The notes under the pieces are model-generated. The model did not search any database. It was not told the origin of the DNA and saw nothing but the letters and a program-made list of their open reading frames with translations. From contig CAZGXX010000001.1 in assembly GCA_964530085.1 (NCBI GenBank), forward strand, positions 96,317 through 160,316: a DNA stretch of 64,000 nt, given 5' to 3'. Numbering within the stretch: position 1 is the stretch's first letter; every line of letters starts with the position of its first letter. Shown here piece by piece: positions 1,642-55,612 of this stretch. This stretch comes from an uncultured Azospirillum sp. GTDB lineage: Bacteria > Pseudomonadota > Alphaproteobacteria > Rickettsiales > UBA3002. A program made the translations under genes and the position numbers.

Positions 1642-2382
1642 TTAGCGGTTTCCAAAAAGCGCCGTGCCGACGCGTACCACGGTCGCGCCCATGCGGATGG
1701 CGGTTTCAAAATCCCCGCTCATGCCCATGCTGAGTTCGGCGAGGCCAAGCTCCCGCGCCATTTTGGCGAGCAGCGCGAAATACGGCGCGGGGTTCACCCC
1801 CTCCGGCGGCACGCACATCAGCCCGTCAATCGCGAGGCCGAGGCTCTGGCAATAAGCCAGCAGCGCCGCCGTTTCTTTGGGCGCCACTCCGGCTTTCTGT
1901 GGTTCCTCGCCGATATTCACCTGAATCAGAAACGCGGGGCGTTTCCCTGTCTTTGTACAGGCCGCAGCTAATGCGTCGGCAATCTTCGGCCGATCCACCG
2001 TCTGAATCACATCAAACAGGGCGACGGCATCGGCTGCCTTGTTCGATTGCAGGGGGCCGATGAGGTGGAGCGTCACCCCCGGGTGGGCTGCTTTGAGCGC
2101 CGGCCATTTTTCCGCCGCCTCCTGCACCTTGTTTTCCCCGAAATGCCTGAGGCCAAGGCCAATCGCGGCCTCGAGCTTCGCCACCGGCTGGTGTTTGCTC
2201 GCGCCGATGAGGATGGGTGATGAAGGGGTTTTGTTGTCGATGCGTAGGCCGGAGGCCAAGCCGCGAAGCGGCGGGGTCAGCGAAGCAAAGGGACGAAGAG
2301 CCCCTTCTGATGCCAAGACTAGTCGCTGTTGCAGCGCTGCATACCCTGTTGCTAATTGGTCATCCACCCCGAGGCCCCCCAT
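1642..2382 (-). CDS. yggS: YggS family pyridoxal phosphate homeostasis protein with repeat-derived N-terminal insertion
   Basis: ASKH, FGENKVQE, HLIGPLQSNK, LSMGMSGD, VRVGTALFG; start uncertain (ATG 2382 or GTG 2367). Confidence 0.93.
   Translation of the reverse strand: MGGLGVDDQLATGYAALQQRLVLASEGALRPFASLTPPLRGLASGLRIDNKTPSSPILIGASKHQPVAKLEAAIGLGLRHFGENKVQEAAEKWPALKAAHPGVTLHLIGPLQSNKAADAVALFDVIQTVDRPKIADALAAACTKTGKRPAFLIQVNIGEEPQKAGVAPKETAALLAYCQSLGLAIDGLMCVPPEGVNPAPYFALLAKMARELGLAELSMGMSGDFETAIRMGATVVRVGTALFGNR
2241..2308 (+). repeat. Palindromic repeat family A, in frame (antisense) within yggS
   Basis: TGCGTAGGCC...AGCCGCGAAGCGGCGGGGTCAGC...AAGAGCCCCTTC aligns by eye with 55534-55612. 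Confidence 0.8.
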
Positions 2383-2668
2383 GATTTTCAACAAATACAA
2401 TCGCTTAATAAAAAAGTCCAGCGAAATCATGGCCATCGCGCCACTTGTGTCAATTTAGCAACAGAGGGGTAGAAAGGGGGTGCCGGGCGTCACTTTTTAT
2501 TTGGCGCAGCTTGCCTTGGGGGGGGGATTCGGCTAATAACTAGCCTCGTGGAACATGCCTTCAGTCCGTTTGGGCTGCGAGTATGTTCATTAGGGTGGTG
2601 TGTACTCTTAAGTTCGAAGAACAGGAATACACATCGCATTTTGTTTCATTAATGAAGGAACGCAAATC

Positions 2669-3811
2669 ATGAAAAAAATTCTTCTTGGTACGACCGGACT
2701 CGTAGGCGCGGCACTGCTGGCAACAGCAGCTTCGGCTGAGACTCCAAAAGTAACCCTCGGCGGTTTCTCTGACTTCCAAGCTGGTTACTCGAGCGACGAT
2801 AAAGACAGCACTGCTGGTAGCAAAGACCACACTGCTTTCCGTAACGACAACGAAGTGACCGTTAAAGTAGACGGCAAAAGCGCTTCGGGCCTCGGCTACG
2901 GCGCTGAGATCGATCTCGAAGCTGACCTCACCAACGACGGTAACAGCCAGGGTGAAAACGCTGCGCGTACCTTCACCTACCTCGAAGGTTCGTTCGGCCG
3001 TGCAGAAATGGGCGGTAACAAGTCGGTTGCTGCTACCTCGCGTATCGATGCTTCGTCGGTTGCTGCTGCTACCGGTGGTATCAACGGTGGTTGGACCAAC
3101 TTCGTTCACGGCGTAGCTGCTGCTCCGACCGGCACCACGGCGAAATTCATCACCATGTCGAAGCTGACCGCTGAGCATGGTTCGCACACGGTCCCAGGTG
3201 ACGAAACCTACTACAACGCAACCAAAGTTTCGTACTACACCCCGAAATTCTCGGGCTTCCAGGCTGGCGTAAGCTACACCCCGGAATTGACCTCGCGTGG
3301 TCAAACGACCAGCTTCGCTGAAAACGCAGGCATCAGCAACGTTTGGGATGCAGCTCTCGGCTACAATGGCAACATTGCAGGCGTAAAGCTCGGTCTCGCT
3401 GGTACCTATGAGCACGGCAACGGCGACAACGCTGCTACCGCTGCATTCGGTAACGACATCCGCGGCTGGAGCCTTGGTGCTACCACCGGCTTCATGGGCG
3501 CTACCCTCGCTGGTTCGTACGCTAAGCAAAGCAAGCTTGGTGACGATTCGCTCAGCGACGGTAAAACCTGGACCCTCGGTGCTGGTTACGGCATGGGCCC
3601 TGTCGGCCTGTCGGCAACCTACCTCAACTCGAAAGTTGATGAGAGCTCTGCAGAGAACGAATTCTCGAACTTTGTTCTCGGTGCAGACTACAAACTGGCT
3701 CCAGGCCTGACCCCGTATGCTGAAGTTTCGTTCTACGACTTCGACAGCGCGGGTACGACCTACGACAACCAAGGTACCGCGATTATCCTTGGTACCCAAG
3801 TTGCTTTCTAA
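2669..3811 (+). CDS. Outer membrane porin
   Basis: Signal peptide MKKILLGTT, Gly/aromatic beta-strand pattern, C-terminal Phe, high-expression codon bias. Confidence 0.93.
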   Translation: MKKILLGTTGLVGAALLATAASAETPKVTLGGFSDFQAGYSSDDKDSTAGSKDHTAFRNDNEVTVKVDGKSASGLGYGAEIDLEADLTNDGNSQGENAARTFTYLEGSFGRAEMGGNKSVAATSRIDASSVAAATGGINGGWTNFVHGVAAAPTGTTAKFITMSKLTAEHGSHTVPGDETYYNATKVSYYTPKFSGFQAGVSYTPELTSRGQTTSFAENAGISNVWDAALGYNGNIAGVKLGLAGTYEHGNGDNAATAAFGNDIRGWSLGATTGFMGATLAGSYAKQSKLGDDSLSDGKTWTLGAGYGMGPVGLSATYLNSKVDESSAENEFSNFVLGADYKLAPGLTPYAEVSFYDFDSAGTTYDNQGTAIILGTQVAF

Positions 3812-3834
3812 GCAATTGGTCTAAGTTAACGGAG

Positions 3835-3862
3835 AGGGCGGCTCGCAAGAGCCGCCCTTTTT
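3835..3862 (+). terminator. Rho-independent terminator after porin
   Basis: AGGGCGGCTC-GCAA-GAGCCGCCCT followed by T run. Confidence 0.9.
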
Positions 3863-3947
3863 GTTTGTGGGGTGCCCCTGTGTCACCCTTGCAAATTTCC
3901 CTGCGGACGCTAGACTTGCGCGCGTTCACCCTCACACAGGTTTTGTT

Positions 3948-53861: not shown

Positions 53862-53962
53862 GCCGTTTTCTAGCACGGGTGAGGTGGTGGGTGAAAGTGT
53901 TGTTTGGCATCGGCGTGCAACATGGTATGGAATATGCAACAACGGAGGACGTGGGAGACGGA

Positions 53963-55216
53963 ATGAAAAAAATCTATGTCATTGCGATTGGCGCCTTGTT
54001 GCTGATTGCCCTGATTGCTGCGGGCGCGATGGCGCAGGTGGCGGAGCCACAGCGCGCGCCGGTGAGCGGGCGTTCGCTGACACCGGACCAGCCGCAATAT
54101 AGTATCCGTGGCATGACCAGCGCGGCACCGGTAGCCTCTGCAATGGGCAGCGGTGCGGTGGTGGTGCCCACGCGCAAAACGGTGAAAGTGGCGCTGCTTC
54201 TGCCGCTGACCGGGCGCAATGGGGAAATTGGCCGCGCCCTGCAAAACGCCGCAAGCGTGGCCTTGTTCGATAAATACGCGCAGCTTTCGCGCAAGCTTCA
54301 GGAAGTGAAAGTGGAGCTGATTTCAAAAGATACGGGCGATTCGCCAGAGCTGGCGCGCAAGGCTGCGGAAGAAGCGGTCGCCGCCGGGGCGGAGCTGTTT
54401 ATCGGCCCGGTGTTTGGTGAAACGACAGAAGTGATCGCGCCCATTGCGGCAGCAAAAAATATTCCGGTGCTGAGCTTCTCGAACAACCGCGACCGCGCGG
54501 CACCGGGGCGCTATATGCTCGGGTTCTCGCCGCAAGAACAAACCTTTCGGGTGGTGAATTACGCCCTCGCCCACGGCAAAAAACGGATTGTCGTGCTCGC
54601 ACCAAAATCGGTGCTGGGCGACGAAGTCTTCACTGCTGCGCGCACCGCCGCTGCTAATGTAGGGGTGAAGCTCGTCGCAGAAATACAGTATCCACCACAA
54701 GCGGTGGGGCTAGATAAAATTCTTGGCCCCCTGCCGAGTGAAAATGGCCGTCCGGCATTCGACGCAATTCTCATTGCCGAGGGTGGGGCGCCGCTTGAGA
54801 CTATTCTCCGCGCACTTGGCTCGCGCGGCGTGACACCTACGAGCGTGCAATTTCTTGGCACGGGCTTGTGGGACGATGTGCAACTGCGGCGCAAAGTGAA
54901 TCTCGACGGGGCGTGGTTTGCCTCGAGCCCGCCGGAGTTGACCGCAAAATTCGAAAGCCGTTATCAGGCGACGTATAGCAGTGCGCCGCCACGCATCGCC
55001 AGCCTCGCTTACGATGCGGTAGCGCTGGCTGTCGCGCTCGCGGTGACCGGGCGGCCTTATGCGGGCGATGCGCTCACCAACCCCACCGGTTTCATGGGGC
55101 CGGCCAACGGGCTGTTTCGGATGCTTCCCACCGGCATGGCAGAGCGTGGCCTCGCCATTATTCGCATCGAGGGGAGTGCGGTGAAAGCCATAGAGCCGGC
55201 GCCGACCGCGTTTTAG
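53963..55216 (+). CDS. LpoA/LppC-like penicillin-binding protein activator (periplasmic binding fold)
   Basis: VALLLPLTG, IGPVF, LGTGLW, LAYDAV, GLFR..ERGLA; divergent from rsmI as usual. Confidence 0.85.
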   Translation: MKKIYVIAIGALLLIALIAAGAMAQVAEPQRAPVSGRSLTPDQPQYSIRGMTSAAPVASAMGSGAVVVPTRKTVKVALLLPLTGRNGEIGRALQNAASVALFDKYAQLSRKLQEVKVELISKDTGDSPELARKAAEEAVAAGAELFIGPVFGETTEVIAPIAAAKNIPVLSFSNNRDRAAPGRYMLGFSPQEQTFRVVNYALAHGKKRIVVLAPKSVLGDEVFTAARTAAANVGVKLVAEIQYPPQAVGLDKILGPLPSENGRPAFDAILIAEGGAPLETILRALGSRGVTPTSVQFLGTGLWDDVQLRRKVNLDGAWFASSPPELTAKFESRYQATYSSAPPRIASLAYDAVALAVALAVTGRPYAGDALTNPTGFMGPANGLFRMLPTGMAERGLAIIRIEGSAVKAIEPAPTAF

Positions 55217-55231
55217 AGAGTGCCTTGGCAC

Positions 55232-55456
55232 TTATTTTGCCGCGCCTTTTTTCGCTGCCGCATAATCCGGATTGAGTGCGCGTTTCCAGCGTTCGATATC
55301 GGTCGCTTTGCGTAGCGCCGGGTATTTCTCGGCCGTGGTGAGCGGCGCTTCGGCCTCGGTGGTGAGCGGCACCATGGGCGCAGGTGACTGTACGGCGCTT
55401 GCCGCGTAATAAAGCAGCGCCGCAAGGAAAAGCCAGGAGAGTAGGCGTTTGAGCAT
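55232..55456 (-). CDS. Small hypothetical exported/membrane protein
   Basis: MLKRLLSWLFLAALLYYAASA hydrophobic N-terminus, 74 aa. Confidence 0.5.
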   Translation of the reverse strand: MLKRLLSWLFLAALLYYAASAVQSPAPMVPLTTEAEAPLTTAEKYPALRKATDIERWKRALNPDYAAAKKGAAK

Positions 55457-55533
55457 GGTCAAATGGTGAGGGATGCGTGGTGAGTCGTGAGCAGTATCGC
55501 ACAGATGGCGAACGACGCACAACGGTTTATTCG

Positions 55534-55612
55534 TGCGTAGCCTTGCATGGCGAGCCGCGTAGCGGCTGAGGTCAGCAACGAAGTTGCGAAGGGGGCAAAG
55601 AGCCCCCTTCAA
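55534..55612 (+). repeat. Palindromic repeat family A, intergenic, just downstream of ychF
   Basis: TGCGTAGCCTTGCATGGCGAGCCGCGTAGCGGCTGAGGTCAGCAACGAAGTTGCGAAGGGGGCAAAGAGCCCCCTTCAA. Confidence 0.9.

Follow-up and report, generated by a model that had tools for sequence, protein, structure and literature searches.

Short palindromic repeats inside bacterial genes are already known and common, which limits how far another such family should surprise. In-frame palindromes of the GTAG and CGTC types are documented in many species (PMC3733652), a precedent against which an earlier note on the present DNA overstated its novelty. How palindromes like the Rickettsia palindromic elements (RPEs) enter genes is still an open question. 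Here we consider family A, a hairpin repeat of about 70 bases named in that note, which lies in a 64,000-nucleotide stretch of contig CAZGXX010000001.1 (assembly GCA_964530085.1, from an uncultured Azospirillum sp.), hereafter the window. Family A is a real dispersed repeat family that is confined to one lineage and is very probably a mobile passenger. New here are its inverted doublets, its swappable DNA mini-hairpins carried on one strand, a replication-strand bias, and slots shared with other repeat families.

Family A in the window and the genome

Six copies had been reported in the window, and all are present. They are listed here with their hosts, where G000 denotes the studied genome, G001 its nearest relative, and ORF an open reading frame.

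1642..2436, minus strand: yggS host ORF; true start likely near 2382, judging from orthologues
2241..2308, plus strand: family A copy occupying the loop that follows the first helix of YggS; antisense to yggS and in frame
19250..19268, minus strand: family A remnant reduced to the final hairpin, located within yejA's C-terminal tail immediately ahead of the yejB start
26651..27238, minus strand: trmL host ORF; likely ATG start at 27190, judging from orthologues
26893..26958, minus strand: family A copy in trmL, sense and in frame; net gain of 66 nt versus G001
36484..36554, minus strand: intergenic family A copy, partly decayed; 3' end oriented toward the TAG stop codon (36470-36472) of a DUF3035 gene
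41755..43398, minus strand: purH host gene, the sole full purH match in the genome
42516..42591, minus strand: family A copy in purH, sense and in frame; about 20 nt of extra flank beyond the 76-nt core, net gain of 96 nt versus G001
55522..55533, plus strand: leader of the next copy, possibly equivalent to half of the doublet spacer of relatives, which it resembles
55534..55612, plus strand: intergenic family A copy, full, with four hairpins; 3' end faces the ychF stop (55620-55622)

The YggS, TrmL and PurH ORFs match their expected Pfam families. As the earlier note held, each of the three full coding copies is read in a different frame and leaves its host open; the corresponding peptides appear in the conceptual translations, and coding copies are presumably translated. 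An nhmmer model built from the five full window copies and iterated over the genome found 20 matches in round 0 (E<1e-3) and 29 after three rounds (E<0.03), compared with none at E<=1 in the reversed genome. Together with motif-found copies and remnants, this brings the genome total to about 35, far below the roughly 190 that extrapolation from six copies in 64 kb would give. The window is unusually dense because copies cluster: 14 of the 18 on its contig, C1, lie within 100 kb of a switch in GC skew in the window. Four parS-like palindromes lie at this switch (11630-13659), and the window likely holds the replication origin.

Twelve of the approximately 35 copies are coding, one of them only probably so; the remainder are intergenic or unclear. 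Hosts are purH, trmL, yggS, priA, mnmC (two copies), nadE, putA and rlmN, with remnants in carA and yejA and a probable case in a TolC-like gene. This count leaves out prmA and three ORFs without a Pfam family, and the nadE, rlmN and TolC-like insertions are placed by domain positions, no orthologue being among the loci compared.

Short, GC-rich copies invite the suspicion of chance similarity or faulty assembly, and loose patterns do produce stray matches: 7 of 58 metagenome matches were judged by eye to be chance and removed before counting. The silence of the reversed genome makes this explanation barely conceivable, as do backwards-pattern controls, which gave 0–2 matches per genome compared with up to 51. 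The purH copy is not an assembly artefact, since a contig from a sequencing run of another study (X3) covers it with 0 differences.

Coding copies as insertions

Orthologues bear out the claim that the element was inserted into conserved enzymes. Of 29 relatives, 24 have a short PurH loop; the other five comprise two with different family A variants, one with a different repeat family, one with four additional residues, and one that could not be aligned. Distant PurH proteins have 19–23 residues at this loop, as parsed by pattern in 71 of 80 loci, compared with 51 in the window. The TrmL segment is absent from 22 of 24 aligned relatives. A single-sequence structure model of TrmL reached a predicted local distance difference test (pLDDT) score of only 30, and an alignment-based model was used instead; there the core is confident, and the insert scores 59–62 compared with 79–96 elsewhere. 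The yejA remnant fits less neatly: the 19-bp sequence is present as reported, but it lies in the C-terminal tail past the conserved end at residue 582 and is not an internal insertion.

The same sites are occupied differently in relatives. At the yejA–yejB junction some carry full family A copies and G001 a CGTC-type doublet, and the yggS loop holds other family A variants in G002, G007 and G003 and the arms of a heptamer repeat in G001. Inverted heptamer arms also occur in the window at 40508-40741 and 25436-25560, and those in mutL are preceded by the opening bases of a family A copy, at a site that in G001 holds the complete element. Among other named hosts in relatives are leuS, mutL, mutY, kdsB, rsmE, hemF, anmK and trxB. 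In G019, priA (L135:8594-11242, minus strand) contains three family A doublets, one partly decayed, in a frame open over 883 codons.

Coding copies likely persist only in tolerant loops and if they leave the frame open, and their peptides are likely to be neutral, harmless passengers. Family A maps such insertion-tolerant loops in PriA, PurH, TrmL, YggS, MnmC and other proteins.

Distribution and turnover

The core pattern matches in 20 of the 23 other genomes of the genus (0–51 matches per genome) and in three of four genomes of one sister genus, but in none of the 12 remaining genomes of the family. Several complete genomes of the genus contain 0–2 matches. A stricter pattern found nothing in 400 genomes sampled from the class, a 300-genome sample of the order gave only stray matches outside the family, and no convincing match was seen in viral contigs, plasmids or phages; incomplete genomes limit all of the absences from genomes. 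Seven of the order-level strays, on inspection, were a family-B-like repeat, chance matches or ribosomal RNA-like sequence, and were excluded from the counts.

Turnover is visible between G000 and G001, which were compared over part of G001 with classes assigned by eye. Among 20 alignable G000 sites, G001 has a near-identical copy at seven, another variant at seven, another repeat family at two, and no family A at four. Twelve further G001 copies lack a full counterpart in G000, three of them being replaced by another family. In all, at least five slots hold family A in one genome and another family in the other. PriA loops gather singles as well as doublets, and in G004 such a loop houses an entire DUF559 gene. 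Nesting occurs too, a CGTC-type doublet lying twice inside the spacer of a family A doublet (L135:1966-2176 and 12020-12229). Elsewhere in the window, a 118-nt direct repeat, 91% identical, links 23508-23625 and 41313-41430.

Hairpin modules and inverted doublets

Read along the strand that carries GTAG, the element runs TGCGTA, hairpin 1, GAG, hairpin 2, GGGGT, an optional hairpin 3, hairpin 4, and TTCA, giving three or four hairpins over 48–116 nt. Almost every copy is unique (204 distinct cores among 206 copies). Hairpin 1 has a paired stem of at least two bases in 196 of the 204 distinct cores, built from 13 different stems, and hairpin module types are found in all combinations. RNAalifold recovered only nine pairs from the raw alignment because modules differ in length. 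An outer stem joining the two flanks looked plausible by eye but proved weak (4.03 versus 3.85) and was rejected.

The mini-hairpins GCGNAGC and CCGAAGG recur in hairpins 1–3. On the GTAG strand there are 219 internal GCGN(N)AGC mini-hairpins, or 148 when one junction string is disregarded, compared with 20 on the opposite strand and 23 in shuffles. This type of motif is far more stable as DNA than as RNA and occurs at single-strand priming sites (PMC13037366).

In relatives, inverted pairs 20–40 nt apart form doublets with their GTAG ends inside, a spacer similar between loci, and a length of 26–30 nt for that spacer in 18 of 21 cases (28–29 nt in 15 of these). Many single copies retain spacer-like leaders.

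Junctions, gene ends and strand bias

Target duplications, which the earlier note had proposed to look for, are absent, flank direct repeats scoring 3.8 compared with 3.7 in shuffled pairs. Just past the 3' end, CTAC (the complement of GTAG) occurs in 34 of 137 trailers, compared with 13.6 in shuffles. Gene ends at the element's 3' end show a preference too, with TAG stops in 36 of 54 orthologue clusters compared with 101 of 270 long genome ORFs, a background that is ORF-based and a sample in which kin sequences are not independent. In this genome 10 of 11 genes ending at a family A 3' end stop with TAG, and among orthologous gene ends TAG is used in 56 of 93 with the element and 93 of 212 without.

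This proximity to gene ends raises the prospect that family A is an RNA signal selected by the host—a terminator, stabilizer or ribosome site—whose coding copies are incidental. A stop codon is no more than 30 nt away from many intergenic copies (76 gene ends compared with 25 in the opposite orientation), and at the yejA–yejB junction the 3' end of the remnant runs into AGGAG just ahead of the yejB start. We nevertheless regard an RNA function as very unlikely: its positions are not conserved from one sister genome to another, several of the genus's complete genomes have just 0–2 matches, Rfam covariance models do not match family A, and the mini-hairpin loops form on the strand opposite to the mRNA of the upstream gene.

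In 27 of the 35 copies of this genome, GTAG is carried by the C-rich strand. Among relatives the same holds for 53 of 73 singles but only 10 of 21 doublet arms, and coding copies show the bias in 9 of 14 sense and 8 of 9 antisense cases. By the usual convention, the G-rich strand is the lagging-strand template.

Oligonucleotide recombination prefers the lagging strand, and family A could conceivably spread without a dedicated enzyme, as nuclease-resistant single-stranded fragments patched in on the lagging strand by the replication and recombination of the host, followed by gene conversion among copies and loss of arms through slippage. In sequence the GTAG strand corresponds to the C-rich, lagging-like strand, modules occur in all combinations, 7 of the 20 sites shared by G000 and G001 carry a different variant, and the mobilizer search described below found no enzyme. 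Such patching would leave unexplained the entry at new sites without homology, the fixed spacer and the CTA(C) bias, and we consider it quite unlikely.

How family A might move

The explanation we favor, tentatively and at a little short of an even chance, is a non-autonomous inverted doublet resembling REPINs (inverted doublets of repetitive extragenic palindromes, REPs), with a single-stranded DNA step, an HUH nuclease acting in trans, and frame-tolerant persistence in genes. The doublet would be the moving unit and singles its remains; transposition would pass through single-stranded DNA; cutting and rejoining may be performed by a nuclease like the REP-associated tyrosine transposases (RAYTs); and genic copies would persist only under the frame and loop constraints described above. 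We are led to this reading by the doublets, the GTAG/CTAC pairing, the strand-specific DNA hairpins and the lack of duplication, and by analogy with described systems (PMC3337134, PMC8266576). TnpAREP cuts at CT sites, a choice thought to be guided by GTAG (PMC8266576). Taken separately, movement as a single-stranded doublet is reasonably probable, and mobilization by an HUH enzyme is possible but somewhat doubtful.

Several observations weigh against this proposal. IS200/IS605 enzymes work on the lagging-strand template (PMC6006769), and the strand bias runs opposite to this simple expectation; it would fit only if that arm were preferentially lost. Intact doublets are absent from this genome, which has singles only, and neither an excision product nor an empty site within a species was seen; in particular, near-identical contigs, at low depth, show no empty site. 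In 183 of 204 cores GTAG forms part of a GCGTAGC mini-hairpin, and hence may not be available as a free guide. Of the five window copies, three do not outdo shuffles in folding. The copies, like the genomes, are related to one another, which inflates P values, and the reading frames of 63 copies in named genes (sense 18, 18 and 0; antisense 24, 2 and 1, hence five frames used) include a zero for the TAG frame that is partly built in by choosing hosts as open frames. Most directly, this 99.9% complete genome has no match to a Y1 transposase or RAYT. The three RAYT-like genes in relatives (L158, L159, L160) are bracketed by an AT-centered inverted repeat unrelated to family A, one of the three sits in a genome without a family A match, and G020, the genome richest in Y1 matches, has no family A match either.

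The earlier note had also proposed looking for a nuclease or transposase gene flanked by the element; our mobilizer searches found none. No RAYT flanked by family A was seen in 40 genomes of the family, several of them incomplete, and ORFs between paired copies include no family A-linked mobilizer among the matches listed. Next to copies, 121 short ORFs were covered (117 out of the 174 candidates, with four more added); 58 of them have a Pfam family, none of a mobile element, and 63 have none, so a partner may have been missed.

Neighboring repeats offer the main rival explanation, in which family A, as seems to be the case for two neighboring repeat families, is a gene-less derivative of a small endonuclease cassette, copied in by nicking and recombination at permissive or occupied slots. 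In this family of genomes one repeat type brackets DUF559 genes (a strict pattern finds it at 17 of 29 loci), and CGTC-type palindromes stand immediately on either side of most of the genus's short GIY-YIG genes (L169, L393, L396-L417). In G004, priA (L317:2389-5358, minus strand) carries a complete DUF559 nuclease domain in frame, bracketed by a different palindromic family, in the very PriA loop where relatives carry family A, and the slots exchanged between G000 and G001 point the same way. Against such an origin, the 260 nt upstream and the 220 nt downstream of 29 GIY-YIG and 29 DUF559 loci contain no family A arm, five copy-rich genomes have no TnpB-type match and no HNH match above the cut-off, and the 58 Pfam-assigned short ORFs are silent. 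We judge the cassette origin unlikely, though the most credible competitor to the REPIN-like reading.

The neighboring families merit attention of their own. Open frames of 400–1700 codons contain many of the DUF559 matches in this family of genomes, and the window contains the DUF559-associated repeat type (15238-15261, 15360-15406 and 15826-15846), yet the genome has no DUF559 match. According to PMC3733652, CGTC repeats have no dedicated transposase; the CGTC-bracketed GIY-YIG nucleases are candidate mobilizers. Hairpin-rich leaders precede tRNA-adjacent GIY-YIG genes (L170, L392, L395, L418) and have mini-hairpin words in common with family A, a resemblance that need not mean homology.

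A bolder and improbable extension is that family A is a modular mini-hairpin cassette that enters on the lagging strand as protected single-stranded DNA, competing with and replacing nuclease-flanking repeats in the same loops. If so, the PriA, MnmC, PurH and YggS loops would be recurrent exchange slots, and the DUF559 and GIY-YIG cassettes nearby would turn out to be the autonomous partners long sought for coding palindromes of the RPE type. The genus supplies dated sites by the dozen, whether filled, empty or swapped, together with intact doublets and two repeat families with visible nuclease partners; the entry question is therefore testable by comparison and in vitro.

Comparison with known systems

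The claim of a distinct, GC-rich family, dispersed and contributing peptide segments to core proteins, has stood up: family A is not RPE1, has no Rfam match and differs in presence between close relatives. Like RPEs (PMC10969869), it consists of dispersed palindromes without a known mobilizer, a large share of them (12 of 35) in frame in unrelated conserved housekeeping genes, and the RPE1 control places it in the same bacterial order, which is probably Rickettsiales since it includes an RPE1-rich genus. Unlike RPEs, it is about 70 nt long rather than about 150 bp, uses five frames on both strands rather than one conserved peptide, and has doublets and modular hairpins. Identity with RPE1 was rejected at the protein and DNA levels: TIGR01045 (RPE1) has no match in this genome or in five others of the family, compared with five of five in control genus g31; and the family A DNA model does not match three RPE1 stretches at E<=10. 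Family A may still be akin to another RPE family; ten element peptides have no NCBIfam match at E<=10, and the family A pattern is absent from RPE1-bearing genomes.

GTAG REPs (PMC3733652), among which are TT dimers, share with family A a terminal GTAG, dimers that have their GTAG on the inner side, heterodimers, a position near gene 3' ends and, within genes, in-frame copies encoding 20–30 residues. They differ in being a single stem-loop of 20–40 bp, compared with three or four hairpins over 48–116 nt; the last G of GTAG is paired in family A, and no REPtron was found. Family A may yet prove identical to one of the 24 published GTAG consensus families; its core motif has no match in four supplements of that paper. 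REPINs and RAYTs (PMC3337134, PMC8266576) offer the set-spacing inverted doublet, singles as remnants, near-unique copies and a vertical, lineage-restricted distribution; family A departs in its multi-hairpin arms, in having about one-third of its copies coding, and in lacking an associated RAYT. The GCGNAGC and CCGAAGG mini-hairpins recall single-strand initiation sites and phage origins (PMC13037366), although no replicon or primase gene lies near family A. A MITE (a miniature transposable element bounded by inverted repeats) was rejected, as singles have unlike ends and no target-site duplication. We found no description of family A in open-access literature text, a scope outside which bioRxiv supplements and figures fall. 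Family A thus lacks the RPE1 sequence, the GTAG-REP structure, a RAYT and the features of a MITE, yet it behaves as an RPE or an intragenic GTAG REP does.

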